A DNA stretch of 24,000 bases from Bryobacterales bacterium. GTDB lineage: Bacteria > Acidobacteriota > Terriglobia > Bryobacterales > UBA6623. The stretch is from the NCBI GenBank assembly GCA_963666225.3, contig OZ224030.1, positions 1,042,062-1,066,061 of the forward strand, written 5' to 3'. The translations under genes were made by a program, and so were the position numbers. Positions 2,773-19,954 of this stretch are shown here, in pieces. Each line of letters begins with the position of its first letter. Positions within the stretch are counted from its first letter, which is position 1. The notes beneath the pieces are model-generated. The model searched no databases, was not told the DNA's origin, and was given only the letters and a program-made list of their open reading frames with translations.

Positions 2773-4205
2773 TCTGCCGCTCGGTCCGGCGGGTCGGGCG
2801 TGGCGCGGCCATGCTGCTCGCGCTGTGCGCCTGCCAGTCCGGACAGCTGGAAGAAGTCGCACTGCCTCCCCTGCCGTCTTCGTTGCCGGCTGGGTTGTCG
2901 TCGGAGATCGCGAGCACGCTCGGCGAGGCGCTGGAGCTCGCTCGAGCGTCGCCGTTGGACGCCGGTCTGAGCGGTCAGTTCGGAATGGCGCTGCACGCCT
3001 ACGGGTTTCGGGAAGCCTCCGTCCCTTGTTACGAACGAGCTTGGGCCCTGAATCGCGAGGATCCGAGATGGCCGTACTATCTCGGGATCGCGCGCGCCGA
3101 GCAGGGACTCCATCCGGCAGCCGTGGAGCCGCTGGGGGCCGCCGTGGCATTGCGCCCGGAGTCGGTGGCCTTCCTCGTCCGGCTAGGCTCGTCTCTGTTG
3201 GAATCCGGCCGCCCGGCTGACAGCGGGCGAGTGTTTGCGAGGGCCCTGGAGTTGGACGACCGTTCCGCGGCTGCCCATCTCGGGCTGGGACGCGCTCGCG
3301 CGTCGGCCGGCGACCATGCCGCGGCATTGCGCGCTTACCTGCGGGCGGTCGAGCTTGCCCCGCGATCCGGCACGGCCCGCTACGCGCTGGCGCTCCAGTA
3401 CCGGTCGCTTGGCCGGGAGGCCGATGCGCGGCGCCAGCTGGAATTGCTGGGCCCTGGTGAGCGTCGCCCGCCGTTCGTGGGCGATCCTCTGATCGCCGCC
3501 CTCGAGAGCGTTCGGTCGGACCGTCAGTCGTTTCTTGACGAGGGCCTCCGGTTGGAAGGCCAAGGGTTGCTCGACGAGGCGGCACGGGCCTACGAGGCCG
3601 CTCTGGAGCGAGATCCGGCCTACGGTCAGGCGCGCACGAACCTTGTCTCGGCCTTGGGCAAGCTGGGCCGGCTGGACGAGGCGGCCGAGCACTATCGCAA
3701 GGCCCTCGAGGTGGCTCCCGACTCCGAGGAATTGCACATCAACTGGGGCACTGCCCTGGTTCAGGCCGGGCGTCTCGACGACGCTGCCGCGAGCTTTCGC
3801 CGGGCGTTGGAGATCAACCCGCGCGCGGCCAGCGCTCACGCCGACCTGGGGATGCTCCTCGACCGCTCCGGTAACTCCGAGGGGGCTCGCAGGCACTACC
3901 GGCGGGCCTTGGAGAGCGAGCCCGAGAACCGCGAGGCCAACTTCCACCTAGCCCGGCATCTGGTTGCCGAAGGCCGGGCAACCGAAGCTGTCTCCCACCT
4001 GCTGAAGACTGCCCGTCCGGTGGACCGCCGCACTGCCACCTACCTGTACGGCCTCGCAGACGCCTACGTGCGGGCCAACGAGCTCGGACCGGCTGTGACC
4101 ACGCTCCGGCGTGCCTTGGATCTTGCCCGCTCGCAAGGGCAGGCCGAGCTTGCTGTGGAACTCGAGCAAGACCTTCGGGCACTCGAGGCGGCGACCGCGC
4201 GCTGA
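2769..4205 (+). CDS. TPR-repeat lipoprotein
   Basis: The protein has repeated 34-aa TPR-like units (AxxxYxxALxxxPxxxxAxxxLG pattern throughout). The track ORF from 2361 overlaps glnE out of frame, so I trimmed it. A TTG at 2769 overlaps the glnE stop (TTGA) and gives a basic n-region plus hydrophobic core and lipobox (RSVRRVGRGAAMLLALCAC). An alternative start is the ATG at 2811. Confidence 0.75.
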   Translation: MICRSVRRVGRGAAMLLALCACQSGQLEEVALPPLPSSLPAGLSSEIASTLGEALELARASPLDAGLSGQFGMALHAYGFREASVPCYERAWALNREDPRWPYYLGIARAEQGLHPAAVEPLGAAVALRPESVAFLVRLGSSLLESGRPADSGRVFARALELDDRSAAAHLGLGRARASAGDHAAALRAYLRAVELAPRSGTARYALALQYRSLGREADARRQLELLGPGERRPPFVGDPLIAALESVRSDRQSFLDEGLRLEGQGLLDEAARAYEAALERDPAYGQARTNLVSALGKLGRLDEAAEHYRKALEVAPDSEELHINWGTALVQAGRLDDAAASFRRALEINPRAASAHADLGMLLDRSGNSEGARRHYRRALESEPENREANFHLARHLVAEGRATEAVSHLLKTARPVDRRTATYLYGLADAYVRANELGPAVTTLRRALDLARSQGQAELAVELEQDLRALEAATAR

Positions 4206-4230: not shown

Positions 4231-7200
4231 TCAGAAGATCAGCTTCAGGCCGAATTGCATCTGGCGGGCCGGGCAGCACTCCGAGGTCGACGAGATCCGC
4301 CCGCCCGCGGGGCGATTGATCGTTCCGTTCGGGAAGTTGAAGTGCGCCTCGTTGAACAGGTTGAAGAACTCGGCCCTGAAGTCCAGTGACAGTCGCTCGG
4401 TGAGCACAAACGTCCTAGACACCATCATGTCGAGGTTCACAAGGCCTGGGCCCTCGAGGATCCACGCCGCGGAATTGCCAAACGTGAAGCGGGCCGGGAC
4501 CTCGAACGCGTCCACGTCGAACCATCTCTCCGGTGTGCGCTCGCTGCGCGGCAGGTTCCCGTCGCGGACGCGGTTGGGACGCTGCCCGCCAGTCGTGTTT
4601 GCCGGATTGCCGGCCACCGAGGGGCTCAGCGGGAGCCCCCGCTGTGCTTCGAAGATGGGCGAGATCTGCCAGCCCCCAATCACCTTGGCGAGGGGTCCCT
4701 GCGTAGCGTACCGCCGCCCCGCCCCGAAGGGCAGGTTCCACACGCCGGCGTAGAAGAACCGCTGCGGCATGTGCTGCCGCGAGATTGTCTTCTCGGCGAC
4801 GAGGTGCGCGAAGCTCGTCCGCTGCCCGAGCTGCCTCACGAGCGTCTTGCTCAGGGTGAAGCCGCTCAGCATCGAGAACCCGCCGCCGAAGCGGCGCTCG
4901 AACTTGGCCTCCAAGCCTTGGTAGTTGGCGCCGCCGATCTGCGGGTTCGTCGTGATGTTGGCGAACTGGGGGAACCAGCGCCGGGGATTGTTCGGGCCGG
5001 CGCCCGGCTCGGGCTGGTTGACGTTCGCGCTGACTTGGTTCTTGACCGTGTTCGACCCGACGTACGCCACAGAGACCAGCGAGTTCCCGGGCAGGGACCG
5101 CTGGATGTTCATGTTCCACTGGTTGGTCATGCCGTTCTGGAAGTCGAACGGCCAGACGCCCACCAGCGATCGCCCTCGGATCACGCTCGGATTGAGCGCG
5201 TCGGCTGGGATCCCGTCCCGGATGATGACTCGCGACGTGGAACTGGCCACGTTCGACGGAATGTCGTTCTGCAAGTAGAACGGCGGGTTCGCCGTGGGAT
5301 CTGCCAGCACGGGCAGGGTGAACGTACCGACGTAAAAGATCCCGTAACCCGCCCGGATCACAGTCTTGGGCGTTAACTGGTAGGCGAGGCCCAGCCGGGG
5401 CCCCCAATCGTTGAGGTCACGTTTTCGGAACGAACGGCCCTCCGTGCCACTGCCAGTCGGGACCAGCGTTCCGAACCTTGAGTCCTCCCAGTCCACGATG
5501 AAGTTCATCGCTCGGTCGTTCTGCTCGACGTACGGCGATTGGTACTCGAAGCGGAGGCCGAGGTTCAGGGTGAGCTTGGGGGTGGCCTTCCACGTGTCCT
5601 GGATGTAGGTCTCGTAGGCGTAGCCGTGGCGGCGCACGTTGAGCGGCGTGCTGAATCGCGTGTTGCTCGTCAGTCCGAGCAGCGCGTCGGCAATCCCGTC
5701 ACCGCCCGTGCGCGTGCCGACCTGAGCCCGCGTGAACTGGTTGTTGAACTGGAACCGGCCGCGGGCAAAGTTGGTGATGCCCGACCAGCGCACGAAATTC
5801 CGAATGTTGACCCCCATCTTCAGCGAGTGGTTGCCCTTCGTCATCGAGAAGCTCTCGACCAGTTGGCGCACGTCCTGCTTGCGCGGATCCGGCGCGAAGT
5901 TGCGGTCCCCGATATTCCGGTAGCCCGATGGGATGAAGACCGGAAGTCCGTTGATGTCCTCCCGATCGAACAGTCCCTTGAAGCCGAAATCCTTCCAAAG
6001 CTGGGTCTGCGTCGGCGTGTCGATGGCGCCGAACAGGCGGTTGTACGCGACGCGCAGCTCGTTGACCATGCTGCCGCCGAGGGCGGCTGTCCAGTTCACC
6101 ACCCCGGTCTTCGCCCGCGACAGGCGTACCGCCGTGTTGCCCCCGCTGGCCGGCAGCGGAAGGTTGCCCGGCTCGAGACGGTCAAAGTTCAGGTAGCTGA
6201 AGCGCACGAACAGCGTGTGGTTGTCCGCGGCCCGCCAGTCGAAGCGCGTGTCGATCTTGTCGTCATCGCGGTTGCGCGAAGGGTTGAAGATGTAGTTCTG
6301 CCGCCCGCCGCGGTTCGGCGCGGGGTAGAGCTCGATCATCCTGGCCGCCACGGGGTCGATGCGGCTCGCGGGGATCACGTCGCCGGGAAAGCGATCGCGG
6401 GTTCCATCCTCGGCCTGCGTCATCGGATCCCAGATGCCGACAACCCCTGAGAGGTCCCCGCGGACTTGCTCGGGAGTCGGGATGATGCTCAGGCGGGTTA
6501 GCTTCTCCCGGATCCGCGTCCCCTCGTAGCTACCGAAGTAGAACATCCGGTCCCGCACCAGCGGCCCTCCGAAGGTGGCTCCGTACTGGTTCTGCCGGAA
6601 GGGCGGCTTCGGCCGCCCGCTGTTGAAGAAGTTGTTCGCGTCCAGAACCTCGTTGCGCAGGAACTCGAACGCCGTGCCGTGGATTTCGTTCGTGCCTGAC
6701 TTGGTCGTCACCTGGACGATCGCCCCGCCGCCGCGGCCGAACTCAGCGCCGTAGTTGTGCGTCTCCATCTTGAACTCTTGGATGGCGTCGATCGAGGGCT
6801 TCACGGCTTGGTTCGATGCGACCACCACGCCGCTGAAGTAGTTGTTGTTGTCGGCGCCGTCCAGCGTGAATACGTTCTGGTCGAATCCCGCGCCGTTGAC
6901 GCTGAAGGCATCCTCCACGAAGTTCTGGCGCCGGCTCGGGAGCACTCCCGCCGATAGGACCGCCAGCTCTTGGTAGTTCCGGCCGTTGAGCGGCATCTGT
7001 GTGATCGTCGTGTTCTCTATCGCCTGGCCGAGGCTCGAAGTCTCCGATTCCAGCAAGGGCAGGTCTGCCGTGACCTCGACCGTCTCGGAGACCGATCCGA
7101 CCTGCAGTTCGACGTCGACCCGGGCTCGCGTTCCCGCGTTCAGCGTGACGTTGGGGCGGAACAGCGTCTGAAAGCCCTCACTTGTTGCCGTCAGGTCGTA

Positions 7201-7437
7201 GGTTCCGATCGGCAGGGCAGTGATGACGTAATTGCCCGTGGCATTGCTCTCGGCGACGTGTTCCAGGCCCGTCGCTTGGTTGATCGCCTGCACGGAAGCG
7301 CCGGCCACCGCCGCGCCGGAAGCGTCCGTCACGAGTCCGGTGATTGTCGCGGTGTCAGTCTGAGCAGACCCCACGCCCGTGAAGATGGCCATGGCCGCAA
7401 CGATCACCGCCCAGCCACAAGATTGCAGGATTCTCAT
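4231..7437 (-). CDS. TonB-dependent outer-membrane receptor with N-terminal carboxypeptidase-regulatory-like domain
   Basis: I chose the start at the internal Met (MRILQSCGWAVIVAAMAIFTGVGSAQ signal peptide), preceded by AGGGGGG 2 nt upstream. The protein begins TDTATITGLVTDASGAAVAGASV (CarboxypepD_reg-like), followed by a plug region (MPLNGRNYQEL). It then runs as a long beta-barrel ending in the C-terminal aromatic signature ...FGLKLIF. Confidence 0.9.
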   Translation of the reverse strand: MRILQSCGWAVIVAAMAIFTGVGSAQTDTATITGLVTDASGAAVAGASVQAINQATGLEHVAESNATGNYVITALPIGTYDLTATSEGFQTLFRPNVTLNAGTRARVDVELQVGSVSETVEVTADLPLLESETSSLGQAIENTTITQMPLNGRNYQELAVLSAGVLPSRRQNFVEDAFSVNGAGFDQNVFTLDGADNNNYFSGVVVASNQAVKPSIDAIQEFKMETHNYGAEFGRGGGAIVQVTTKSGTNEIHGTAFEFLRNEVLDANNFFNSGRPKPPFRQNQYGATFGGPLVRDRMFYFGSYEGTRIREKLTRLSIIPTPEQVRGDLSGVVGIWDPMTQAEDGTRDRFPGDVIPASRIDPVAARMIELYPAPNRGGRQNYIFNPSRNRDDDKIDTRFDWRAADNHTLFVRFSYLNFDRLEPGNLPLPASGGNTAVRLSRAKTGVVNWTAALGGSMVNELRVAYNRLFGAIDTPTQTQLWKDFGFKGLFDREDINGLPVFIPSGYRNIGDRNFAPDPRKQDVRQLVESFSMTKGNHSLKMGVNIRNFVRWSGITNFARGRFQFNNQFTRAQVGTRTGGDGIADALLGLTSNTRFSTPLNVRRHGYAYETYIQDTWKATPKLTLNLGLRFEYQSPYVEQNDRAMNFIVDWEDSRFGTLVPTGSGTEGRSFRKRDLNDWGPRLGLAYQLTPKTVIRAGYGIFYVGTFTLPVLADPTANPPFYLQNDIPSNVASSTSRVIIRDGIPADALNPSVIRGRSLVGVWPFDFQNGMTNQWNMNIQRSLPGNSLVSVAYVGSNTVKNQVSANVNQPEPGAGPNNPRRWFPQFANITTNPQIGGANYQGLEAKFERRFGGGFSMLSGFTLSKTLVRQLGQRTSFAHLVAEKTISRQHMPQRFFYAGVWNLPFGAGRRYATQGPLAKVIGGWQISPIFEAQRGLPLSPSVAGNPANTTGGQRPNRVRDGNLPRSERTPERWFDVDAFEVPARFTFGNSAAWILEGPGLVNLDMMVSRTFVLTERLSLDFRAEFFNLFNEAHFNFPNGTINRPAGGRISSTSECCPARQMQFGLKLIF

Positions 7438-7539
7438 CGCCCCCCCTGATTGTCCGCCCAGCCGCCCAGCGGTGCCGATGATCGATGTTTCGTTCGCCCG
7501 CGTCGCCGGAGGAAAGCTGCCAATGCGCTTTCGGGCAGA

Positions 7540-7545
7540 ATTATA
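7540..7545 (-). promoter_or_regulatory. Candidate -10 box (TATAAT on the minus strand) upstream of the TonB-dependent receptor
   Basis: A perfect TATAAT hexamer lies in the divergent intergenic region about 100 nt upstream of the ATG at 7437. No convincing -35 element was seen. Confidence 0.25.
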
Positions 7546-7614
7546 CATGTTGCGTTGTTGCGCCGGTTGGCGTTCCGAACATTCGGCGGCTAAGTGCTGG
7601 TAGAGTGAATACTC

Positions 7615-8162: not shown

Positions 8163-9323
8163 ATGGATTTCTTCGACCAGGTGGGCCAAGCGTTGTCTTC
8201 CGGCGACGTCGATCGCGGGTTCGAGCTCGCGATTGAGCGTTTTCGCGAGGAGCGGGCCTACCCTCTGATCTTCGAAGCCCGCCTGATGCGCAAGCGCCAT
8301 GCGCTGGGCATGCCGCTGATCCAGACCGAGCCTTGGAAGAACCTCGAGCCTTCCGTTCAGGCGGAGTACGAGAGGGCGACCATGGAGGCTGCCGGGGAGG
8401 TCGGCGGGCTGTTCTTGGAGGACGGCGAGATTGGCAAGGCGTGGCCGTACTTCCGGGCCATCGGTGACCGAGAGGCCGTGCGCTCGGCGATTGAGGAGCA
8501 CGGCCCCACCGCGAGCGGCGAGGCTCTGGAGGGAGTGATCGAGGTTGCCTATCACGAGCAGGTCAGCCCGAGGCGCGGATTCGAGCTGATCCTGAAGCAC
8601 CACGGCACTTGCCGGGCGATCACCAACTTCTCGCAGTACCCGGTCGAGGAAGGGCGGGCGGACTGTGCCCAGATGCTGGCCGAGAATGTGCACTCGGAAT
8701 TGCTCGGCAACATCAAGTACGCCATCGAGAAACACGACGGAAGCGCTCCCGACGGCGATGATTTGGCGGCCACCGTGGTCGGCAGGGACTGGCTCTTCGA
8801 CGGGAATGCCTACTACTTGGACACCTCGCATGTCTCCTCGCTTGTCCAAATGGCACCCTCCATTGACAGGTCGGAGACCCTGAGGCTGTTGCTCGGGCTC
8901 GCCGAGTACGGCCGCCGCCTCGGGGAGATGTACCAGTTTCCCGGGAATCCGCCGTTCGAAGACGTCTTCGCGGACTTCGCGGTCTATATCAAGGCAGTGC
9001 TCGGCGTCGAGGTCGAGGCCGGGCTGGACCACTTCCGCCGCAAGATCGAGGTCTGCGACCCGAACGTGGCCGGGACCACGCCTGCTCAGGTGCTGGTCAA
9101 CCTGTTGGTGCGTATAGGCAGGAAGGCCGAGGCGGTCGACGTCGCGCTGGAGCATCTGACCGATGCCAATCCGCAATTCCTGCAGTGCCCGGGACCGCTG
9201 CAGCTTTGCCAGATCGCTGGGGATTACGGGCGGCTGGCCACGGTGGCCCGCGAGCGGCGCGACCTACTCAGCTTCGCGGCGGCGACGATGCAGGATTCCC
9301 CACTGCCAAGGCCGGCGGCCTAG
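8163..9323 (+). CDS. Conserved hypothetical protein (all-alpha composition), function unknown
   Basis: The ORF has a balanced, protein-like composition. An ATG (MDFFDQ...) is preceded by a G-rich stretch; the track start at 8130 is a TTG 11 codons upstream. The stop TAG (9321-9323) lies inside the 9-bp target duplication of the downstream insertion. Confidence 0.7.
   Translation: MDFFDQVGQALSSGDVDRGFELAIERFREERAYPLIFEARLMRKRHALGMPLIQTEPWKNLEPSVQAEYERATMEAAGEVGGLFLEDGEIGKAWPYFRAIGDREAVRSAIEEHGPTASGEALEGVIEVAYHEQVSPRRGFELILKHHGTCRAITNFSQYPVEEGRADCAQMLAENVHSELLGNIKYAIEKHDGSAPDGDDLAATVVGRDWLFDGNAYYLDTSHVSSLVQMAPSIDRSETLRLLLGLAEYGRRLGEMYQFPGNPPFEDVFADFAVYIKAVLGVEVEAGLDHFRRKIEVCDPNVAGTTPAQVLVNLLVRIGRKAEAVDVALEHLTDANPQFLQCPGPLQLCQIAGDYGRLATVARERRDLLSFAAATMQDSPLPRPAA
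9315..9323. repeat. Left copy of the 9-bp direct target-site duplication GCGGCCTAG
   Basis: An identical 9-mer abuts the outer end of the right terminal repeat at 16840-16848. Confidence 0.75.
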
Positions 9324-9373
9324 CTAGCGCTACATCGTAGTTAACACAGAGCGGGTTAGTCGTGTAGAACAGC
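9324..9373 (+). repeat. Left terminal inverted repeat, outer part (before the intron)
   Basis: CTAGCGCTACATCGTAGTTAACACAGAGCGGGTTAGTCGTGTAGAACAGC matches the reverse complement of 16790-16839 with 5 mismatches. Confidence 0.8.
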
Positions 9374-9719
9374 GTGCGCCGTGCTAAGGCACTGGCTCCC
9401 AGCGGGTGCGAAGCCCGCCCGGCTAACTGTCGCTCCAGCCGGAAGCCGTCGGAGCGGGTCATGGAGGTAACGACATGGACTGAAGCACTTCGACGTGACG
9501 GGCCGCCTTTTGGGCGGCTCAGCGAGCACGCAGGCCGCAACGCGAGTGAACGCCGAGCAGGCCTCGAAAAGCACAATGCGGAGGCCGACCCGCCGTTGTT
9601 TCGGGGAAGGCAGCTAGCGTCCGGGAAGCGAGCGACGCGAGCACCGGGCGTCTCCGCCGGGGTATTGGCGGCAGCATGCGTGCAAGAGGGAGACGGAGGC
9701 AACACGGGAAGCCCTGGCG

Positions 9720-11210
9720 GTGGCGCGCACGCGCCAACCGGCATCCCGCGAGGGACAGGCCGGGCCGGGCAGGGTGGCGGAGAGGCCCGTAGTACCGACG
9801 AAGCCGGGTAACTCCGGCGGAGGGAAGGGACCTCAGTTCGAGAGCGATGCGGGAAGGGGGAAAGGACCGGTGGAGACTGGCGAAGGCCTAGGAGCTCCGG
9901 AAACTGTTCGGAGACTCCAGACGGCATTACATGTGAAAGCGAAGGGAGATCCGGGCTTTCGGTTCTACACGCTGAGTGACAAGGTGTGGCGGGAGGACGT
10001 GATGGCTGCCGCGTGGCAGGCGGTGCGCCGCAACGGCGGGGCCTGCGGAGTGGACGGCGAGACGTTCCAGCACATCGAGGAGCGAGGCGTGGACGGCTGG
10101 CTCGGAGGACTGGCGGAAGAGCTGAGGGAGAACACCTACCGACCGCATGCGGTGCGGCAGGTGCTGATCCCGAAGAAGCAGCCGGGGAAATTCCGACCGC
10201 TGGGCATACCGTGCATCCGGGACCGGGTAGCGCAGACGGCGGCCACGCTGGTGTTGACGCCGATCTTCGAAGCGGACCTGCAACCGGAACAGTACGCCTA
10301 CAGGGAGGGCCGGAGCGCGCTGGACGCGGTGCGTCACGCGCATCGGCTGGTGCACACCGGGCACGGCGAAATCGTGGACGGCGATCTGTCGAATTACTTT
10401 GGCGAGATCCCGCACACCGAACTCATCAAGTCCATCGCGCGGCGCGTTAGCGACGGGCGGATGCTGGGCTGGATCAAGCTGTGGCTGGAGATGGCTGTGG
10501 TAGAGGACGACGGCAAGGGCGGCCAGCGCCGCACGAACCGGGCGCGCCGGGAAAGGAAGGGGACGCCGCAAGGCGCTCCGATCTCCCCGTTGCTGAGCAA
10601 CGTCTACATGCGGCGGTTCCTCCTAGGTTGGAAGCTGCTGGGCCTGGCCCGGCGGTTCGGCGCGGAGATAGTGAATTACGCGGACGACTTCGTGATCTGC
10701 GGCAAGGCCCCGGCGGAAGCCATGCGGGCCGCAGTCGAAAGGATCATGGGGAAGCTGCGCTTACCGCTGAACGCGACGAAGACCGACTGCCTGCGCACGC
10801 CGGAGGAGCCGTTCGAGTTCCTCGGGTACCGCATCGGACGCAATTACAGCCCGCGCACAGGCCGGGCCTACATAGGCACGCGCCCGAGCAAGGCGAGCGT
10901 CCGCAGCATATGCCGCAAGATCAGTGAGCTGACTCGGGCAAGATACGGGCTGCTGGCCCCGGAACTGGTGGTGGCGAGGCTGAACCGAGCGATGCTCGGC
11001 TGGGCGAACTACTTCCGGTTGGGACAGGTGAGCCCGGCGTATTGCGCCGTGGACGCACACGCGGTCAAGCGGCTGCGTCAGTGGCTGTGTCGGAAGCACA
11101 AGGTGAAATCGGGGAGATACGTGCGCTACCCGAGCGAGAGGCTGTGGGACGACTTCGGCCTCGTGCGCCTGCAACTGCTGACGGCCAGCTTCCCGTGGGC
11201 GAAGACATGA
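9720..11210 (+). CDS. Group II intron-encoded reverse transcriptase/maturase (no endonuclease domain seen)
   Basis: The N-terminal block is typical of bacterial intron-encoded proteins (RRLQTALHVKAKGDPGFRFYTLSDKVWREDV...NGGACGVDGETF). RT motifs are present, including PLGIPCIRDRVAQ and NYADDFVI (YADD). The C-terminus has a maturase/X-domain-like segment (LNRAMLGWANYFRLG). The start codon is uncertain: GTG at 9720 or a later GTG. Confidence 0.9.
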   Translation: MARTRQPASREGQAGPGRVAERPVVPTKPGNSGGGKGPQFESDAGRGKGPVETGEGLGAPETVRRLQTALHVKAKGDPGFRFYTLSDKVWREDVMAAAWQAVRRNGGACGVDGETFQHIEERGVDGWLGGLAEELRENTYRPHAVRQVLIPKKQPGKFRPLGIPCIRDRVAQTAATLVLTPIFEADLQPEQYAYREGRSALDAVRHAHRLVHTGHGEIVDGDLSNYFGEIPHTELIKSIARRVSDGRMLGWIKLWLEMAVVEDDGKGGQRRTNRARRERKGTPQGAPISPLLSNVYMRRFLLGWKLLGLARRFGAEIVNYADDFVICGKAPAEAMRAAVERIMGKLRLPLNATKTDCLRTPEEPFEFLGYRIGRNYSPRTGRAYIGTRPSKASVRSICRKISELTRARYGLLAPELVVARLNRAMLGWANYFRLGQVSPAYCAVDAHAVKRLRQWLCRKHKVKSGRYVRYPSERLWDDFGLVRLQLLTASFPWAKT

Positions 11211-11220
11211 TCTCGTCCGA

Positions 11221-11253
11221 GAGCCGGATGCTGGAAATCGGCACGTCCGGTTC
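11221..11253 (+). ncRNA. Group II intron domain V (catalytic hairpin)
   Basis: GAGCCGGAUGCUGGAAAUCGGCACGUCCGGUUC has a 9-bp lower stem with the AGC triad, a 2-nt AC bulge, a 4-bp upper stem and a GAAA-type loop. It lies 10 nt after the IEP stop. Confidence 0.85.
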
Positions 11254-11256
11254 GAC

Positions 11257-11383
11257 GAGCGGGGAGAGGAAACGTGGCTAAGCAGGAAGGTCAGTGAGGC
11301 ACCTACAGATGGCGAAAGCCGTAGGAACAACCCCAAAACAGCTACTGCTTCTTGACTAAGGCCAACGCGCCTCTCCTCGACTC
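11257..11383 (+). ncRNA. Group II intron domain VI, unusually long (about 127 nt)
   Basis: Basal helix GAG/CTC, unpaired A at 11380, then CGGGGAGAGG (11260-11269) pairs with CCTCTCCTCG (11370-11379). The distal arm contains AAGCAG/CTGCTT and a CCTAC...GGC-GAAA-GCC...GTAGG hairpin. All pairings were found by eye only. Confidence 0.55.
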
Positions 11384-11386
11384 TAC

Positions 11387-11435
11387 AGTAGTGCGAATTG
11401 GCCTGCGTATGCTGAAGCTGGGCACAGCCGATTGG
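11387..11435 (+). repeat. Left terminal inverted repeat, inner part (after the intron); contains the DUF4338 start codon
   Basis: AGTAGTGCGAATTGGCCTGCGTATGCTGAAGCTGGGCACAGCCGATTGG matches the reverse complement of 16741-16789 with 3 mismatches. Confidence 0.8.
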
Positions 11436-11519
11436 TTGCGCGAGGCTCTGCGGAAGGGCACGCTCTCGCGGGCGGCCTTGGCACGACAGCTGTGTGAGCT
11501 GGACGGCTGGCGCAACTAG
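11409..11519 (+). pseudogene. DUF4338 (DruA-family) gene, 5' fragment of 36 codons, ending at a TAG supplied by the abutting Rpn cassette
   Basis: MLKLGTADWLREALRKGTLSRAALARQLCELDGWRN*. The sequence continues in frame (NRKGERCAASARKGLPRLAAELGLPLPP...) on the opposite strand at 14500 downward. Confidence 0.65.
11498..11516 (+). repeat. 19-bp junction repeat GCTGGACGGCTGGCGCAAC, copy 1
   Basis: Identical copies occur at 14508-14526 (direct) and 14482-14500 (inverted). All three sit exactly at rearrangement junctions. Confidence 0.9.
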
Positions 11520-11864
11520 CCCTGCCAGCATGATCGTGCCGGTTCCCGTGCTACCGTCCAGCCACTCTCTGGCGGGGCCAGCCCGCGGACTGTGGCTCTT
11601 GAAGGGCGCTGACGATTGAAGGGCCGATGCCCACCCGTGCCCGGCAGCGAACCTCGGCGGTCGTGAGGGCTCAGGCGACCGGGCCCTATGCCGACGCAGC
11701 CGTCTCGGGGCCATCCTCTGCTGGCAGTTGCGGTGTGATGGTTGTCCGCAGGGCTCGTTTCGCGATTCACCGCACAATCATCGAGGCCGGGCGGCGGTGC
11801 TACCCTGCCCCTTGACGCCGACGCGGTCCTGACTTGTAGCGGCGGCGAGCATCACCAACCCACC

Positions 11865-12860
11865 ATGGATCCGGCAGTCAACCCTGGCAAGCCCAAAGAC
11901 AAGAAGCCACGCAACACCATTGACAAGCCGCACGACGCCCTCTTCCAAGGGCTGCTTTCGGACCCGCTGCGCTCGCAGTCCGTGCTGCAGGCGCACCTGG
12001 AGCGGTGGACGCTGGAGCTGCTGGCCGACGAATTGCCAGTGCCGCTGGACCCCAGCTTCGTGGACGAGGCCTTGCGTCGGAGCCAGAGCGACAAGCTGCT
12101 ACAGGTGACGCTCAAGGATGGCGCGCCAGGCTACGTGTATGCCCTGCTGGAGCACAAGTCCTATCCGGACGCAGGTACGGCGCTGCAGATCTCAACGTAC
12201 AAGAGCCGTATCTGGGAACGGTACGCCCAAGGCCGAGCGAGCAGGCTCCGGGCGCTGCCGACGATCATCCCTGTCGTGTTCTATCACGGGGAAGAGGAGT
12301 GGACGGCACCGATGTCGATTCGGGAAATGCTGCGGACCCGGGACGAACGGTCGCGGAAACTGGAGCCAGCGCTTGGGTATTATCTGCGGGACTTGAGAAG
12401 GATTCCAGCGGAGCAACTGGCATCCGACCGGGCAGCGCGGGCGGGTTTGATCGCGCTGCGCCACTCGCATGCGCGCAGCCAGGACGAGCGGCTGCGGGAA
12501 CTGCCCGAAGTAGTGGCCGGGCCACGGTCGGGATCGGAGTACGAGAAGCAGGTTTTCATGTATCTTATGAACATCTGGGGCATCGCGTCCGAAACGCTGG
12601 GAGACGTTGCGGAAGTAGTCAAACCGAGGAGGGGTAAGGCCGTGGTTGGACAGATCGTGCAGGAACTCATTGATCGGGGCGAGGCCAAAGGGCTGGCTGG
12701 TGCCTTGACACGACTCTTGGAGCGTCGATTCGGCATGCTGCCGCTTGCAGTCCGTAGGTGGATCGCAACGGCCCCGCCGAGTGAGCTGGACGATCGGTTC
12801 ACCGACTCCTTGGACGCCAAGTCCCTCGCCGAAGTGTTTCCGGGGCTCGATTGGAACTGA
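11865..12860 (+). CDS. Rpn family recombination-promoting nuclease / putative transposase (PD-(D/E)xK, YhgA-like) with DUF4351-like C-terminal domain, copy 1
   Basis: KPHDALFQGLL near the N-terminus; SDKLLQV...GYVYALLEHKSYPD (D...ExK core); LPTIIPVVFYHGEEEWT; C-terminal GEAKG...LLERRFG...LD...L.AKSLAEV. These match E. coli RpnA-type landmarks (PHDAVFK, YSDVLY, VLIEHQS, LPLVIPILFYHG). I chose the ATG at 11865 over the track's TTG at 11742. No Shine-Dalgarno is visible (CACCAACCCACC-ATG). Confidence 0.85.
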   Translation: MDPAVNPGKPKDKKPRNTIDKPHDALFQGLLSDPLRSQSVLQAHLERWTLELLADELPVPLDPSFVDEALRRSQSDKLLQVTLKDGAPGYVYALLEHKSYPDAGTALQISTYKSRIWERYAQGRASRLRALPTIIPVVFYHGEEEWTAPMSIREMLRTRDERSRKLEPALGYYLRDLRRIPAEQLASDRAARAGLIALRHSHARSQDERLRELPEVVAGPRSGSEYEKQVFMYLMNIWGIASETLGDVAEVVKPRRGKAVVGQIVQELIDRGEAKGLAGALTRLLERRFGMLPLAVRRWIATAPPSELDDRFTDSLDAKSLAEVFPGLDWN

Positions 12861-12977
12861 GGAAGCCGCTGGCCGCGAGCCGCCCGGAGGTTCGCCTCGA
12901 TCTGCACCAGGTAGGACCACAATGCTAACCGGGCGTGGGTTTCCAGATTGTCCCGGCGAGTGCGCGGCGCGCCGGAG

Positions 12978-13224
12978 TCAACCGGAGAAATACTGAAGGT
13001 CCCAGGACGGTCGGCCGCGACAGATCGAGCCAGCGGCTGAGCACCGGCCGGGCGACTTGAGGAAGATACTGGGTGTACGGCTTGCGTCGGACCTCGCGGC
13101 GCGGGCGCTTAATCGTGCTGCGGCACCGTGCGCTGCCCGAAGTGGTGACACAGACGGCGGTCGGGATCGGATCTCGAGAAGCGAGTGTTCTTGTGCCTCA
13201 TGAAGGTTTGGGACGGTGGGCCGA
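12978..13224 (+). pseudogene. Decayed Rpn paralog remnant downstream of copy 1
   Basis: Nucleotide-level colinearity with Rpn codons from about SIREML through ...SGSEYEKQVFMYLMNIW. For example, TCGGGATCGGATCTCGAGAAGCGAGTGTTCTTGTGCCTCATGAAGG aligns with TCGGGATCGGAGTACGAGAAGCAGGTTTTCATGTATCTTATGAAC. The remnant is interrupted by stops and indels. Confidence 0.55.
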
Positions 13225-13285
13225 CTAGCGCGGAAGCGTAGTTAACTCTTACTTTCAGTTGCGAGTTGAAGTTGGCCTGGCCGAA
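13225..13285 (+). repeat. Third, more diverged copy of the terminal-repeat motif (internal)
   Basis: CTAGCGCGGAAGCGTAGTTAAC matches CTAGCGCTACATCGTAGTTAAC of the left TIR at 18 of 22 positions. It is followed by a second similar block (...GTTGCGAGTTGAAGTTGGCCTG versus ...GTAGTGCGAATTGGCCTG). Confidence 0.5.
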
Positions 13286-13820
13286 TCTGTGAGAGTCCCC
13301 GGGGGCGGTGGGCCAAGTCTGGAGGATGGCAGCAGCGGTGCAGACGAGTCTAGTGCCCAGCGGCGTTCTGGGCGTGCTGCAGGCCGCCGTCTTCGGGGAG
13401 AGTGGGCGGCGCTGTCCCTTGGGCGCCCGCGCCTCCCATGGCCGGCGACTGCGGCCAAGCCGTGGGTCTGTGCGAGGTTCAGCCAACAGACTGGCCGACC
13501 GCGCACCGGCTCCAGACGGACTAGCGGACGTTCTCCGGCTTTGCACCCCGGTGAGGGCCCCTGTGGTTCGCCGCGAACTGTCGCGCTAGTCCCGAGCTCT
13601 CCGGCTTGGCGCTACCGGGACTCCATGGCCTGCGGCCGGGCTGCGCTCGGCGGCTATCAATCACCGTCGAAAATTGCACACTTTTCGGGAGCCGCCGCGG
13701 AGGGGGCGGAGCGACCGGAGCGGGGGCTCCCGATGGAGTCGAGACACCCATCATGACCCTGCTCCCCCATTCCCGGTGTGCTCCGCGGAGACGGCGCGGG
13801 AGGCCGTTGGATGGATGGCC

Positions 13821-14500
13821 TTCGAGAGTTCCATATGGCGGCGCATCCCGCGCGTAGCGCACCAGCAAGGAGACCTGCTTGCGATTGCGCTCCGGCTCGC
13901 GGAAGTCCGGCCTGGCCCGCTGCGCCCGCGAGGGCTCCTTGGCCCCCCGCGGCAGGCCCTCCGTCTCACCCAGGCACTCAAAGCCCGCCGCCTTGTAGCA
14001 CGTCGCCCGCCGGTGCTGCTCGACGCAGGTCTCAACCGCCACCGGTGCGCTCCCGTTCAGCCGCTGACAGTCGAGGCCCAAGCGCCGCAGCGCCAAGCCC
14101 GGCACGTGGCTGGCGAGGTTCTTGACAACCACGCCGGAGCGCACCAGGAAACGGTCGTTGGAGACCAGCTTGGGCAGGTTCCGGCGGCGGGTGCGCTCGT
14201 CCCAGCCCAGATGCTGGTCGCGCGGCCCTAGGCGCATCGGCGCGGCCACGAAGCTGACCACCCCCACGACCTGACCCCCCGGCTCGGACGCCGTACACCA
14301 GCCGGAAACCCGGTGCGCGCCCGCGCCCCAGCGGATGTTCCGCAGCCAGCAGATCCCCATAGTGCCGACGCAGCTTGAGCGTGTCGGCCGGGCGCCGCGC
14401 CGGCGGCAAGGGCAGACCTAGCTCTGCCGCCAGCCTTGGCAGACCCTTGCGAGCCGAGGCCGCACACCTCTCCCCTTTCCGGTTGCGCCAGCCGTCCAGC
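13821..14500 (-). pseudogene. DUF4338 (DruA-family) gene, 3' portion on the minus strand; frameshifted
   Basis: Two minus-strand frames together give LDGWRNRKGERCAASARKGLPRLAAELGLPLPP...HPLGRGRAPGFRLVYGVRAGG / QVVGVVSFVAAPMRLGPRDQHLGWDE..NLPKLVSNDRFLV...VKNLASH...VAVETCVEQHRRATCYKAAGFECLGETEG. This follows the DUF4338 pattern (..AAxWxxxxRDxxIGW..NLxxVVNNxRFLILP..NLAS..LLETFV..GTCYKAANW..G.T.G). The frame switches at a G6 run (14275-14280). Several conserved positions are substituted, and the ORF runs past the expected C-terminus. Confidence 0.7.
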
Positions 14501-14526
14501 TGTGTGAGCTGGACGGCTGGCGCAAC
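14482..14526. repeat. Perfect 45-nt palindrome: 19-bp arm, 7-nt spacer (TGTGTGA), 19-bp arm
   Basis: GTTGCGCCAGCCGTCCAGC TGTGTGA GCTGGACGGCTGGCGCAAC. The left arm is the start of the minus-strand DUF4338 3' piece. The right arm plus spacer duplicates 11491-11516. Confidence 0.9.
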
Positions 14527-14807
14527 TAGCCCTGCCAGCATGATCGTGCCGGTTCCCGTGCTACCGTCCAACCACTCTCTGGCGGGGCCAGCCCGCGGAC
14601 TGTGGCTCTTGAAAGGCGCTGACGATTGAAGGGCCGACGCAGCCGTCTCGGGGCCATCCTCTGCTGGCAGTTGCGGTGTGATGGTTGTCCGCAGGGCTCG
14701 TTTCGCGATGCACCGCACAATCATCGAGGCCGGGCGGCGGTGCTACCCTGCCCCTTGACGCCGACGCGGTCCTAGCCTGTAGCGGCGCCGAGCATCACCA
14801 ACCCACC

Positions 14808-15875
14808 ATGGATCCGGCAGTCAACCCTGGCAAGCCCAAAGACGAGAAGCCACGCAACACCATTGACAAGCCGCACGACGCTCTCTTCCAAGGGCTGCTC
14901 TCGGACCCGCTGCGCTCGCAGTCCGTGCTGCAGGCGCACCTGGAGCGGTGGACGCTGGAGCTGCTGGCCGACGAATTGCCAGTGCCGCTGGACCCCAGCT
15001 TCGTGGACCAGGCCTTGCGTCGGAGCCAGAGCGACAAGCTGCTGCAGGTGACGCTCAAGGATGGCGCGCCAGGCTACGTGTATGCCCTGCTGGAGCACAA
15101 GTCCTATCCGGACGCAGGTACGGCGCTGCAGATCTCAACGTACAAGAGCCGTATCTGGGAACGGTACGCCCAAGGCCGAGCGAGCAGGCTCCGGGCGCTG
15201 CCGACGATCATCCCTGTCGTGTTCTATCACGGGGAAGAGGAGTGGACGGCACCGATGTCGATTCGGGAAATGCTGCAGACCCGGGACGAACGGTCGCGGA
15301 AGCTGGAGCCAGCGTTTGGGTATTATCTGAGGGACTTGAGAAGGATTCCAGCGGAGCAACTGGCATCCGACGCCGCAGCGCGGGCGGGTTTGATCGCGCT
15401 GCGCCACTCGCATGCGCGCAGCCAGGACGAGCGGCTGCGGGAACTGCCCGAAGTAGTGGCCGGGCCACGGTCGGGATCGGAGTACGAGAAGCAGGTTTTC
15501 ATGTATCTTATGAACATCTGGGGCATCGCGTCCGAAACGCTGGGAGACGTTGCGGAAGTAGTCAAACCGAGGAGGGGTAAGGCCGTGGTTGGACAGATCG
15601 TACAGGAGCTCATTGATCGGGGCAAGGCCCAGGGGCTGGCGCAAGGGCTGATCAAGGGGGAGGCCAAGGGCGAGGCCAAGGGGCTGATCAAGGGCGAGGC
15701 CAAAGGGCTGGCTGGTGCCTTGACACGACTCTTGGAGCGTCGATTCGGCATGCTGCCGCGTGCAGTCCGTAGGTGGATCGCAACGGCCCCGGCCAGTGAG
15801 CTGGACGCTCGGTTTACCGACTCCTTGGACGCCAAGTCCCTCGCCGAGGTATTTCCGGGCCTTGATTGGAACTGA
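14808..15875 (+). CDS. Rpn family recombination-promoting nuclease / putative transposase, copy 2
   Basis: Near-identical to copy 1, with a handful of substitutions by eye. It carries a 24-codon expansion of a GEAKG/GLIKG-type repeat in the linker before the C-terminal domain. It has the same upstream leader minus a 67-bp segment. Confidence 0.85.
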   Translation: MDPAVNPGKPKDEKPRNTIDKPHDALFQGLLSDPLRSQSVLQAHLERWTLELLADELPVPLDPSFVDQALRRSQSDKLLQVTLKDGAPGYVYALLEHKSYPDAGTALQISTYKSRIWERYAQGRASRLRALPTIIPVVFYHGEEEWTAPMSIREMLQTRDERSRKLEPAFGYYLRDLRRIPAEQLASDAAARAGLIALRHSHARSQDERLRELPEVVAGPRSGSEYEKQVFMYLMNIWGIASETLGDVAEVVKPRRGKAVVGQIVQELIDRGKAQGLAQGLIKGEAKGEAKGLIKGEAKGLAGALTRLLERRFGMLPRAVRRWIATAPASELDARFTDSLDAKSLAEVFPGLDWN

Positions 15876-15992
15876 GGAAGCTGCTGGCCGCAAGCCGCCC
15901 GGAGGTTCGCCTCGATCTGCACCAGGTCGGACCACAATGCTAACCGGGCGTGGGTTTCCAGGTTGTCCCGGCGAGTGCGCGGCGCGCCGGAG

Positions 15993-16198
15993 TCAACCGG
16001 GGAAATACTGAAGGTCCCAGAACGGTCGACCGCGAGAGATCGAACCAGCGTCCGAGCACCGGCCGGGCGCCTTGAGGAAGATACTGGGTGAACGGCTTGC
16101 GTCGGACCTCGCGGCGCGGGCGCTTAATCGTGCTGCGGCACCGTGCGCTGCCCGAAGTGGTGACACAGACGGCGGTCGCGATCGGATCTCGAGAAGCG
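15993..16198 (+). pseudogene. Decayed Rpn paralog remnant downstream of copy 2, truncated by a crossover into genuine Rpn sequence
   Basis: Colinear with 12978-13188. At GAGAAGCG (16191-16198) the sequence switches from the decayed type to the intact-gene type. Confidence 0.55.
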
Positions 16199-16205
16199 GG
16201 TTTTC

Positions 16206-16556
16206 ATGTATCTTATGAACATCTGGGGCATCGCGTCCGAAACGCTGGGAGACGTTGCGGAAGTAGTCAAACCGAGGAGGGGTAAGGCCGTGGTTGGACA
16301 GATCGTACAGGAACTCATTGATCGGGGCAAGGCCCAGGGGCTGGCGCAAGGGCTGATCAAGGGGGAGGCCAAGGGCGAGGCCAAGGGGCTGGCTGGTGCC
16401 TTGACACGACTCTTGGAGCGTCGATTCGGCATGCTGCCGCGTGCAGTCCGTAGGTGGATCGCAACGGCCCCGGCCAGTGAGCTGGACGCTCGGTTTACCG
16501 ACTCCTTGGACGCCAAGTCCCTCGCCGAGGTATTTCCGGGCCTTGATTGGAACTGA
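16206..16556 (+). CDS. Orphan ORF equal to the C-terminal 116 residues of Rpn (linker plus DUF4351-like domain only)
   Basis: MYLMNIWGIASETLGD...AEVFPGLDWN is identical in register to the C-terminus of copy 2 and starts at the in-frame Met pair (M-Y-L-M) present inside both full-length genes. It has an intermediate repeat number in the linker. Whether it is expressed is unknown. Confidence 0.55.
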   Translation: MYLMNIWGIASETLGDVAEVVKPRRGKAVVGQIVQELIDRGKAQGLAQGLIKGEAKGEAKGLAGALTRLLERRFGMLPRAVRRWIATAPASELDARFTDSLDAKSLAEVFPGLDWN

Positions 16557-16673
16557 GGAAGCTGCTGGCCGCAAGCCGCCCGGAGGTTCGCCTCGATCTG
16601 CACCAGGTCGGACCACAATGCTAACCGGGCGTGGGTTTCCAGGTTGTCCCGGCGAGTGCGCGGCGCGCCGGAG

Positions 16674-16740
16674 TCAACCGGGGAAATACTGAAGGTCCCA
16701 GAACGGTCGACCGCGAGAGATCGAACCAGCGTCTGAGCAC
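16674..16740 (+). pseudogene. Third decayed Rpn remnant, cut off by the right terminal repeat
   Basis: Matches 15993-16059 with one substitution, ending ...CAGCGTCTGAGCAC directly at the inner edge of the right TIR. Confidence 0.5.
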
Positions 16741-16839
16741 CCAATCGGCTGTGCCCGGCTTCAGCATGCGCAGACCAATTCGCACTACTGCTGTACTACA
16801 CCACTAACCCCCTCTGTCTTAACTGCGATGTAGCGCTAG
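16741..16839 (-). repeat. Right terminal inverted repeat (uninterrupted, 99 bp)
   Basis: Its reverse complement equals 9324-9373 plus 11387-11435 with 8 mismatches, and includes a copy of the DUF4338 start (ATGCTGAAGCCGGGCACAGCCGATTGG). Confidence 0.8.
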
Positions 16840-16848
16840 GCGGCCTAG
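16840..16848. repeat. Right copy of the 9-bp direct target-site duplication GCGGCCTAG
   Basis: Identical to 9315-9323 and immediately outside the TIR end. Confidence 0.75.
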
Positions 16849-18325: not shown

Positions 18326-19954
18326 GTGACAGTCCGGCCAGCGCTCACAATGGCCCTGATGGCCGCCCTGTGGGGGTGCGGCGCGGCTCCCGGGCCCGGC
18401 CCTGGGATTCGCGGTGAGGATTTGGCCGCTGACACACGATTCCTGTCACTCGACCTGCTCGAAGGCCGGGGCGTTGCCAGCAGGGGCGAGATACTCGCCA
18501 CGGAGTATCTCGCCACTCAGCTCGCGCTTGCCGGGGCGGAGCCGGCCGGCGATGGCGGGACGTACTTCCAGGCGGTCCCGCTGGTCGAGGTCAAGACCCA
18601 GCCCGGCACGGAGCTCAGCGTCGCGGGCCAGGCCCTGCGCCCGCAGGACGACTACGTCGGCACGAACGAGCTCCAGACAGGCCGGGAATTGCTGGATGCC
18701 GAGGTCGTCTTCGTCGGGCACGGCATTAGCGCGCCGGAATTTGACTGGGACGACTACAAGGGGGTGGACGTCACTGGCAAGGTTGTGGTGCTGTTCACCA
18801 ATGAGCCACCCTCGGAGGATCCCGGCTTCTTTGGGGGCCGGGCGCTGACATATTACGGCCGCTGGACCTTCAAGTACGAGGAGGCGGCTCGCCGCGGAGC
18901 TCTCGGAGCGCTCATCGTGCACACGGACGCCACGGCCGGGTATCCGTGGGATGTCGTGCGCAACTCTTGGAGCGGCGGGCAGCTCTACGTGGAGCGGGCT
19001 GAGGGCGAGCCAAAGCTGGCCCTGGCCGGCTGGCTGACATCGCAAGCCGCGCGGCGTCTCTTCGATGCATCGCCCGAGACGGCTGGCGCGTCTCTGGACG
19101 AGCTGCTGGCCGCGGCGAACCGCCCCGACTTCAGCCCCGTCGCCCTGGGCGTGAACGCGCGGGCTGACATGCGCAGCTCGATCGTCCCGGTCGAGAGCCG
19201 CAACGTGCTCGGCCAGTTTCCCGGCAGCGACGACGTCCTGGCCGGCCAAGCCGTCCTGTACACCGCCCACTGGGACCATCTGGGCATTGCCGAGGCAGGG
19301 GACGACCCGATCTACAACGGCGCCGTCGACAACGCGACGGGGTGCGCGGCGCTGCTGGCGATCGCGCGGCAGATCGGCGCACTGCCCGAAGCTCTGGGAC
19401 GGTCGGTCGTCTTCGCGTTCGTTGGGGCCGAGGAGAGCGGGTTGCTCGGCTCCGCCTATTACGCCGCGAATCCGGTCTTCCCGATGGGCCAGACCGCCGT
19501 CAACCTCAACTACGACGGACTATTCCCGTTCGGCGTTACGAGTGACATCTCCGCTCCCGGGCACGAGAGGACCACGCTGCGCCAGACGGTTGTCGATCTC
19601 GCGCGGAGTTTCGGGCTGGACCTCACGCCAGATGCGCACCCCGAGCAGGGCTACTACTACCGGTCGGACCAGTTCAGCCTTGCCAAGCGGGGCGTGCCGG
19701 CGTTCTCGATCAGGAGCGGTTCGCACTTCACTGGCCGTCCCTCGGGCTGGGGAGAGGAACGTGTGGGCCAGTACCGGGAGCGGCACTACCACCAGCCGTC
19801 CGACGAGTTCCGGGAAGACTGGGACTTTTCCGGAATCGCCGACTTGGCGCGCTTCGGGCTGGAGCTCGGGCGCATCGTCGGGAACTCCGCCGAGGTGCCC
19901 ACGTGGGCCGACGGGGATGAGTTCCGGGCCGCGCGGGACGCTTCCTTGCGCTGA
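18326..19954 (+). CDS. M28-family aminopeptidase with PA domain, probable lipoprotein
   Basis: The signal/lipobox is MTVRPALTMALMAALWGC. The M28 metal-site context is HWDHLG, YNGAVDNATGCAALLAIAR and FAFVGAEESGLLGSAYY. The gene starts 9 nt after the glcD stop, which is operon-like. Confidence 0.85.
   Translation: MTVRPALTMALMAALWGCGAAPGPGPGIRGEDLAADTRFLSLDLLEGRGVASRGEILATEYLATQLALAGAEPAGDGGTYFQAVPLVEVKTQPGTELSVAGQALRPQDDYVGTNELQTGRELLDAEVVFVGHGISAPEFDWDDYKGVDVTGKVVVLFTNEPPSEDPGFFGGRALTYYGRWTFKYEEAARRGALGALIVHTDATAGYPWDVVRNSWSGGQLYVERAEGEPKLALAGWLTSQAARRLFDASPETAGASLDELLAAANRPDFSPVALGVNARADMRSSIVPVESRNVLGQFPGSDDVLAGQAVLYTAHWDHLGIAEAGDDPIYNGAVDNATGCAALLAIARQIGALPEALGRSVVFAFVGAEESGLLGSAYYAANPVFPMGQTAVNLNYDGLFPFGVTSDISAPGHERTTLRQTVVDLARSFGLDLTPDAHPEQGYYYRSDQFSLAKRGVPAFSIRSGSHFTGRPSGWGEERVGQYRERHYHQPSDEFREDWDFSGIADLARFGLELGRIVGNSAEVPTWADGDEFRAARDASLR

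Follow-up and report, generated by a model that had tools for sequence, protein, structure and literature searches.

The DNA analysed here is a 24-kb stretch (the window) of contig OZ224030.1 from a Bryobacterales bacterium (UBA6623), and the coordinates of the insert are window positions. Between a hypothetical gene and glcD the window carries an insertion, 9324-16839, in which pieces of a gene of the DUF4338 (DruA) family are combined with a group II intron and with Rpn/YhgA-like genes. This is a genuine mobile-element insertion, of an ordinary kind. We consider it, at a probability of about 0.82, a defective, rearranged and non-autonomous composite derived from an insertion sequence (IS) of the IS4 family (IS50/Tn5-type). 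The features are listed below in the order of their positions; handles beginning with L and P designate loci and proteins, respectively.

9315..9323, no strand: left target duplication GCGGCCTAG, containing the TAG stop codon of the conserved upstream gene
9324..9373, plus strand: IS left end (left inverted repeat, IRL, 'type A'), IS 1-50; terminal 22 bp CTAGCGCTACATCGTAGTTAAC; 88% identical to the IRL of L011
9374..11386, plus strand (the same strand as the transposase gene): group II intron in the 5' untranslated region (5'UTR) of the transposase gene (Rfam and Pfam)
11387..11516, plus strand: IS 51-180, i.e. the rest of the left end and the first ~36-42 transposase codons (tblastn to residues 1-42 of intact open reading frames, ORFs)
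11517..13224, plus strand: Rpn block A, with an Rpn/YhgA-like PD-(D/E)XK nuclease gene at 11742-12860, followed by its tail and by the beginning of another copy (3' partial) that breaks off at 13212
13225..13611, minus strand: canonical right end (right inverted repeat, IRR, 'type B'), inverted and internal; terminal motif CTAGCGCGGAAGCGTAGTTAAC and ~390 bp of non-coding DNA
13612..13878, minus strand: decayed 3' end of the transposase gene (around ...SLARYARDAP...; compare the C-termini of P0032 and of the L028 ORF), with L008 IS 2290-2330 corresponding to window 13878-13838
13872..14501, minus strand: DUF4338 coding region (predicted GNAT-like), inverted relative to its own 5' end (Pfam DruA; tblastn and blastn against intact copies)
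14482..14526, no strand: perfect 20+20-nt palindrome with a 5-nt spacer, joining the inverted IS body to a second forward copy of IS 151-180
14527..16736, plus strand: Rpn block B, with a full Rpn gene at 14685-15875, its tail, and a 3' partial copy at 16173-16556 with its tail
16737..16839, minus strand: second IS left end, IS 1-103 (IRL, 5'UTR and the first ~10 codons, MLKPGTADWV), forming the right boundary
16840..16848, no strand: right target duplication GCGGCCTAG; glcD starts 34 bp downstream

A first-pass annotation of this DNA had described a split inverted repeat with a 9-mer directly outside both of its ends, and both observations hold. The sequence 9324-9373 plus 11387-11435 differs from the reverse complement of 16741-16839 at 8 of 99 positions, which is the same count as before, and the repeat continues to 104 nt with 10 mismatches. 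The perfect 9-bp duplication GCGGCCTAG occurs only twice in the window (9315 and 16840), each time abutting one end. The empty site that had been proposed, i.e. the upstream gene abutting glcD, is seen in the closest retrievable orthologous loci, L056 and L057. There, orthologues of the upstream gene (a real, widely conserved ORF of 386 aa) with identities of 82% and 76% stand directly before glcD, with gaps of 53 and 21 bp. A search of the window with the 22-bp end motif CTAGCGC-N5-CGYAGTTAAS, for which the expected count is 0, gave three matches: 9324 (+), 16839 (-) and 13225 (+). The internal one at 13225 had been missed at first pass.

The nature of the element becomes apparent from its intact relatives. 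A scan of species-representative genomes returned 52 loci, all from metagenome-assembled genomes (MAGs) of Acidobacteriota (Bryobacterales, Vicinamibacterales and Terriglobia). Many of these genomes have numerous copies, the highest number being at least 20, and identical copies occupy different sites. The intact copies are 2.4-3.0 kb long and multicopy, and contain one ORF of 761-809 aa. In this ORF a winged helix-turn-helix (wHTH)-like region is followed by the DUF4338 domain, of predicted GNAT fold, and then by a complete Tn5-like transposase with the DDE and YREK residues. ORFs of this size are uninterrupted at ten loci in several genomes (L028, L034, L025, L008, L009, L004, L016, L021, L022 and L013), all with a single transposase ORF and no programmed frameshift.

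The 763-aa ORF of L028 may serve as an example. Pfam places DruA at residues 124-231 (7e-14) and Tnp_DNA_bind at residues 299-355 (7e-11), and DDE_Tnp_1 is also detected; the NCBIfam model NF033590 'IS4 family transposase' is matched with 286 bits (cut-off 160). Residues 298-754 align with residues 11-460 of the Tn5 transposase (E 1.6e-34), which is the best sequence match in the PDB. The IS4 family is defined by a DDE transposase with a Y-(2)-R-(3)-E-(6)-K signature (PMC2266710), and by our reading of the L028 motifs (LLVQDTTTLNY, VVVGDRESDIY and YEARWGIEEYFRVLK) the three catalytic residues and this signature are all present. Two proteins of the family have already been named 'IS4 family transposase' by NCBI.

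The ends of the family are 22-bp terminal inverted repeats (TIRs) starting with CTAGCGCT (for example CTAGCGCTCAATCACAGTTGAC), past which the left and right ends diverge. Those of the L028 type fit, in our own reading, the published IS50-subgroup consensus CW------Y---CA-A--W-. Every copy is flanked by a 9-bp duplication of its own, and the duplicated sequences differ among L008, L011, L020, L028, L030, L033 and others. Copies within a genome are 95-100% identical across exactly 2385-2430 bp (L014, L025 and L028 types), and the IS at L008, with its intact 809-aa ORF, measures 3046 bp. These lengths lie outside the 1350-1550 bp typical of the IS50 subgroup, the surplus being made up by the DUF4338 extension together with a long non-coding stretch at the 3' end. 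The parent is an active IS4/IS50 (Tn5-type) insertion sequence whose sole unusual feature is an N-terminal extension of ~297 aa. The likeness to IS4/Tn5-type elements remarked on at first pass is supported, as a transposon-type insertion of that kind, and an IS4-family transposase with matching ends does exist elsewhere, in the intact Acidobacteriota copies. It had also been asked whether intact DUF4338 genes are flanked by such TIRs and by 9-bp duplications; the duplications are there, whereas the TIRs are 22 bp and not 99 bp long.

The closest relatives of the window copy, L011 and L008, are found in the Bryobacterales genome CAXXUI01. The left end of L011 ('type A') is 88% identical to that of the window over 180 bp, its right end ('type B') is different, and its target duplication is CACTGGCTG. 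CAXXUI01 also contains a multicopy variant in which an extra, inverted 173-bp copy of the right end lies beside a complete IS, with duplications that differ from site to site (CTGGGCCGG, CACAACTGC). Because this variant is multicopy and has different 9-bp duplications, 'extra end plus IS' units of the family do transpose. At L008 the variant has perfect-looking TIRs of 173 bp (5757-5929 and 8630-8802), where the inverted right-end copy abuts a left end that is now degenerate. It was also seen at L004, L005, L010, L020, L026, L027 and L037, each copy with its own 9-bp duplication. The right end of the Bryobacterales subfamily comprises a conserved non-coding region of ~390 bp (window 13225-13611; L008 IS 2657-3046), as compared to ~80 bp in Vicinamibacterales copies.

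Compared with the intact IS of L008, the window copy retains only positions 1-1067 and 2290-3046. The deleted ~1.2 kb (IS 1067-2290), the junction of which is at 13871-13878, encodes Tnp_DNA_bind plus all of the D, D, E and YREK residues. The earlier statement that no transposase lies inside the insertion is right for this copy, because the core has been deleted: tblastn with the proteins of intact relatives finds only the DUF4338 part in the 24-kb window, and Pfam detects no DDE segment there either. Two genes of the 'Transposase_31' family are present; these are the Rpn genes. The 'DUF4338 gene' of the window corresponds to the 5' third of a transposase gene of the IS4/IS50 (Tn5) type. Its start codon, ATG 11409 or GTG 11391, lies within the repeat, as had been noticed, and the IS 51-180 piece stops abruptly at the Rpn block. 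The inverted coding region contains a frameshift near 14279-14293 and an internal deletion of ~100 bp near 14391-14395. Window 13225-13611 is 79% identical to intact right ends (L008 IS 2613-3046), and the right-end sequence of intact copies maps onto window 13225-13655. The centre of the palindrome at 14482-14526 is the native CAGCT-GTGTG-AGCTG hairpin of the transposase gene. The palindrome itself has the appearance of an inversion junction formed by fold-back (template switching), or else may be an artefact of long-read assembly.

The long outer repeats, which had been taken for the TIRs of the element, are two copies of the IS left end and not the native TIRs of the family: canonical copies share ~22 bp between their ends, and the two ends of the window element are both left ends. 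The one at the right boundary meets the Rpn tail through ~5 bp of microhomology. The first codons of the two left ends resemble different IS lineages of the same genome, i.e. MLKL... (P0014) and MLKP... (P0005, P0318), and the differences between these ends (8-10%, with distinct first codons) fit an origin from two IS copies. A target duplication was also sought at two further places, next to the internal IS body (13225-16839) and next to the left IS that would result if the inversion were undone. Both were rejected, with only 4 and 6 of 9 positions matching, respectively, when the sequences were read. Derivation of the present order in one step was rejected as well: neither one inversion nor one duplication suffices to explain it, and it must have taken three events or more.

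The cargo between the IS pieces consists of the two Rpn blocks, whose genes match PF04754 (Transposase_31) with 1.7e-40 (block A) and 8.8e-41 (block B). The blocks form a direct duplication, 94-98% identical, and one of them follows each forward IS junction. The two genes (372 and 396 aa) have different numbers of short KGEA/KGLI-type repeats close to the C-terminus, and a stand-alone ORF of 116 aa (16206-16556) corresponds to the C-terminal part of Rpn only and has a weak DUF4351 match. A stretch of ~59 bp in the block A leader (11631-11689), bounded by short direct repeats, is missing from block B, which suggests a slippage indel. In E. coli, rpn genes have variable repeats and small intragenic RpnS antitoxins (PMC10400941), and the repeats and the 116-aa ORF of the window resemble these. 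The likeness to known Rpn (recombination-promoting) nucleases extends to the PF04754 match, the varying short C-terminal repeat and the stand-alone C-terminal ORF; in contrast, the similarity to E. coli RpnA is weak (54 bits against a cut-off of 583), as is the NCBIfam RpnA-like match of the block A gene.

The intron reported as interrupting the left repeat is a real group II intron. Its RNA matches RF02003 (78 bits) and RF00029 (42.4 bits), both above the Rfam gathering scores, its reverse transcriptase/maturase ORF (9720-11210) contains the Pfam domains RVT_1 and GIIM, and its ends read 5' GTGCG ... CTAC 3'. Relatives occur in other Bryobacterales genomes at L039 8631-10625 (84% identity over the full length) and L037 8884-10208. 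The flanks of these copies are unrelated, and homing specific to the IS end was rejected.

The protein encoded by the DUF4338 pieces can be reconstructed by joining 11409-11516 to the minus strand from 14501 downwards and repairing one frameshift. It matches Pfam DruA (PF14236) with 1.2e-14 and 54.7 bits, above the cut-off, over profile positions 70-219 of 297 only; the intact relatives score 52-76 bits. The first-pass annotation had considered that this protein might be part of a mobility function, which would be new. DUF4338 is neither a stand-alone nor a new mobility enzyme: in the intact relatives it is the N-terminal domain of one long ORF, the rest of which is the Tn5-like DDE transposase. 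It can be counted to a mobility function only weakly, as an accessory domain that the transposase has conserved.

Homologues of the reconstructed protein in a collection of 5.8 billion proteins repeatedly carry PF14706 (Tn5 transposase DNA-binding) or PF01609 (DDE_Tnp_1) in the same protein. An exhaustive search with phmmer gave 3048 clusters at E<=1e-3; 41 of the top 150 reach 600 aa or more and have the domain at the N-terminus. Ten of the phmmer matches, nine of them from this long group, were scanned with Pfam, and Tnp_DNA_bind and/or DDE_Tnp_1 was found in 7/10. The other three were an IS66-type transposase with C-terminal DruA, a 487-aa protein with a partial Tnp_DNA_bind fragment before the domain, and a protein with DruA only. 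A protein annotated as 'ISAs1 family transposase' on a Thiodictyon plasmid has the domain at its start. Fusions to ISAs1-type (N-terminal) and IS66-type (C-terminal) transposases were observed in P0040, P0259 and L055 3441-4775, and in P0018 the domain occurs with GAF and HD domains.

Within the IS family the domain is conserved to the same degree as the transposase part. Between L028 and L016 the identity is 69% in the domain and 75% in the transposase part, and the linker has 20-48% across the pairs compared; L014 was left out of the ORF comparison, as the ORF picked there was an out-of-frame artefact (~20% identity). The ratio of nonsynonymous to synonymous substitution rates (dN/dS) lies between 0.24 and 0.42 in residues 1-270 and between 0.18 and 0.42 in the transposase part. 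Together with the recurrent fusions, these values suggest that the DUF4338 domain is of importance to the IS family, as a conserved module of the transposase with the same purifying selection as on the catalytic part.

The AlphaFold2 model of P0001 has a mean predicted local distance difference test score (pLDDT) of 79.6, with about 90 in the domain and values exceeding 88 over most of residues 90-290. An N-terminal region with three helices and a short beta-hairpin (wHTH-like) is followed in the model by an alpha/beta core, the best PDB match of which is the Mom protein of phage Mu (8bv8; E 1.3e-6, target TM-score 0.58). The core has 88 PDB matches at E<=1e-3, and all of the 50 matches listed are Mom or GNAT-type acyltransferases. 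DUF4338 has been assigned as a GNAT domain (PMC10853773), and residues ~90-290 of the IS-family domain are predicted to adopt this fold, with Mom as the closest solved structure. The predicted fold argues against the RNase-H-like nuclease or integrase fold that had been entertained for the protein, and this candidate was dropped.

DUF4338 is otherwise known from DruA of type I Druantia, and the two belong to the same Pfam family. The differences are that the profile match is partial, that the PADLOC DruA models gave no match to the DUF4338-transposase proteins (E<=0.01), and that there is no druBCDE context: in the element the domain is accompanied by Rpn genes and a group II intron, and in the intact relatives the domain is fused to the transposase. 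The DUF4338 of the IS family is a relative of DruA and not DruA itself.

The following course of events would lead to the composite. By analogy with the CAXXUI01 variant, the ancestral unit may have consisted of a solo left-end fragment, Rpn DNA and a complete inverted IS. Bounded by two left ends, this unit would have transposed to the site between the hypothetical gene and glcD in the manner of a mobile insertion cassette. Since Tn5-type transposases act on any two correctly oriented ends, a unit with two left ends would be mobilisable and would give a 9-bp duplication. The cognate transposase could have come from the internal copy before its decay or from another copy in the genome; the parent IS would move by cut-and-paste, and the transposition event would have produced the duplication. 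A more complete copy, P0318 (697 aa, with D, D and E), is present on the window's own 2.09-Mb contig. Later decay would then comprise two deletions (1.2 kb and ~100 bp) and the frameshift, together with the fold-back junction, the doubling of the Rpn DNA and the invasion of the intron. The present element is non-autonomous, and probably immobile or mobilisable only in trans. Of the two explanations offered at first pass, a non-autonomous element mobilised in trans is the better one, as there is no working transposase; the other, a new mobility function of DUF4338, is not upheld.

Several points weigh against the composite origin. No second copy of the cassette was found: the IS-Rpn junction and the type-A end had 0 matches in metagenome contigs, and the Rpn block is absent from the 52 surveyed IS loci. 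Because of this, it is only from the types of the ends and from the duplication that movement as a unit is inferred. The more complete copy, P0318, is itself interrupted directly behind the catalytic E. Between the two left-end copies there is a difference of 8-10%, in contrast to the perfect 9-bp duplication. The order of the internal rearrangements cannot be reconstructed, and if the genome is a long-read MAG, as its closest relatives found here are, assembly errors may have contributed to the frameshift and to the palindromic junction.

Another course would be that a single autonomous IS with the usual ends (IRL...IRR) inserted at this site, and that everything else took place later in situ: the Rpn DNA was captured, parts were inverted and deleted, and a left-end copy took the place of the right end. 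The 9-bp duplication is of the size made by single IS copies of the family, and the palindromic junction and the direct Rpn duplication prove extensive rearrangement in situ. However, the right boundary is left-end sequence for 103 bp, i.e. far past the 22 bp common to both ends, and a genuine right end lies internally at 13225. A swap of the terminal end with the flanking duplication kept would need a special conversion event, and the Rpn DNA would have to enter without an insertion signature, so we regard this course as unlikely. A role of the Rpn/YhgA-like 'Transposase_31' proteins in moving or assembling the segment appears very improbable. Two full copies and one partial copy of Rpn are inside, and Rpn proteins stimulate recombination that does not depend on RecA (PMC5350276). 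At 11516/11517 and 16737 the junctions resemble illegitimate recombination with a microhomology of a few bases. Against this, the ends and the duplication are of the IS4 type and are present in many genomes that have no Rpn gene at all, and TIR-bounded insertions with 9-bp duplications are not known from Rpn proteins. Least credible of all, to the point of being nearly negligible, is that the DUF4338 protein is a new kind of transposase or recombinase recognising long repeats. Its ORF does start within the repeat, the domain is under purifying selection in the IS family, and it recurs with several transposase families. Nevertheless, every full-length member examined has a complete Tn5-like DDE transposase in the same ORF, the 9-bp duplications and CT ends are hallmarks of the Tn5 type, the predicted fold is GNAT (Mom/acetyltransferase-like) and not that of a known recombinase, and the window copy is split, inverted and frameshifted.

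Some further observations concern other copies of the family and the surroundings of the element. An element of ~3.7 kb that encodes a large serine recombinase (Resolvase, Recombinase, Zn_ribbon_recom) is inserted within the YREK-coding segment at L002 7954-11685 and L011 7932-11685, i.e. at the same position in two CAXXUI01 copies. The homologous read-through tail of P0318 (compare also the tail of P0308) points to its presence in an IS copy on the window's contig as well. The insert is apparently an integrative element with site specificity for the transposase gene of the IS. The loci L031 and L032 (OY761475.2, ~3.40 Mb and ~7.11 Mb) contain identical IS copies with reciprocally swapped 9-bp flanks (ACCTCGCAC / GGTGTCGCC), which indicates a chromosomal inversion through recombination between the copies. 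In the window, the glcD product has the Pfam domains FAD_binding_4 and FAD-oxidase_C. An M28 peptidase gene comes next after glcD in L056 and L057, and the glcD-M28 order is conserved in relatives. The flanking chromosomal genes encode GlnE (67-2772), a tetratricopeptide-repeat (TPR) protein (2361-4205), a TonB-dependent-receptor-like outer-membrane barrel (4231-7548, minus strand), the M28 peptidase (18326-19954) and a DUF1501 protein (21993-23390, minus strand).

Among known systems, the parent IS resembles IS50/Tn5 (IS4 family, IS50 subgroup) in its YREK DDE transposase with an N-terminal Tnp_DNA_bind module, its single unshifted ORF, its 5'-CT ends and its 9-bp duplications (8-9 bp in the subgroup). 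It differs in the extra ~297 aa at the transposase N-terminus (wHTH-like and DUF4338, predicted GNAT) and in its length of 2.4-3.0 kb versus 1.35-1.55 kb, and the window copy is without the catalytic core. The window element as a whole is comparable to mobile insertion cassettes, such as MIC231 of IS231 of the IS4 family (PMC2266710), and to compound transposons with one defective IS, in that inverted IS ends enclose passenger genes, no functional transposase is present and a duplication flanks the unit. Unlike such cassettes, it ends in two left ends of ~100 bp, still contains a decayed, inverted IS body and is known from one copy, its mobilisation in trans being inferred. Phage Mu Mom and the GNAT acyltransferases share with residues ~90-290 of the domain the predicted GNAT fold, at a sequence identity of 10-18%.

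At this locus an attractive lead thus turns out to be wrong: DUF4338 does not represent a new transposase, and we read the element as a decayed IS4/Tn5-type composite. What novelty remains is at the level of the family, i.e. a conserved, DruA-like N-terminal module of predicted GNAT fold on Tn5-like transposases. A fusion of this kind is not described in the searchable literature, in which the GNAT assignment (PMC10853773) is the sole relevant item. We tentatively put forward, as a possibility that is less probable than not, that the DruA-type GNAT domain serves a large clade of Tn5-like transposases as a functional module under selection and controls transposition by acyl-CoA sensing or by modification of DNA or protein at the ends or the target. 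If so, DruA of Druantia would be related by descent to an accessory domain of transposases, and this would provide a handle on the function of DruA. Tn5 transposase binds its ends through its N-terminus. Extra IS ends create new composite units that are able to capture defence-type genes such as Rpn, for which this role is putative. In more general terms, there are widespread, active Tn5-like insertion sequences with a conserved DruA-like domain, of predicted GNAT fold, at the N-terminus of the transposase, and these DUF4338 transposases offer an experimentally tractable system for a domain that has no known function in Druantia either.

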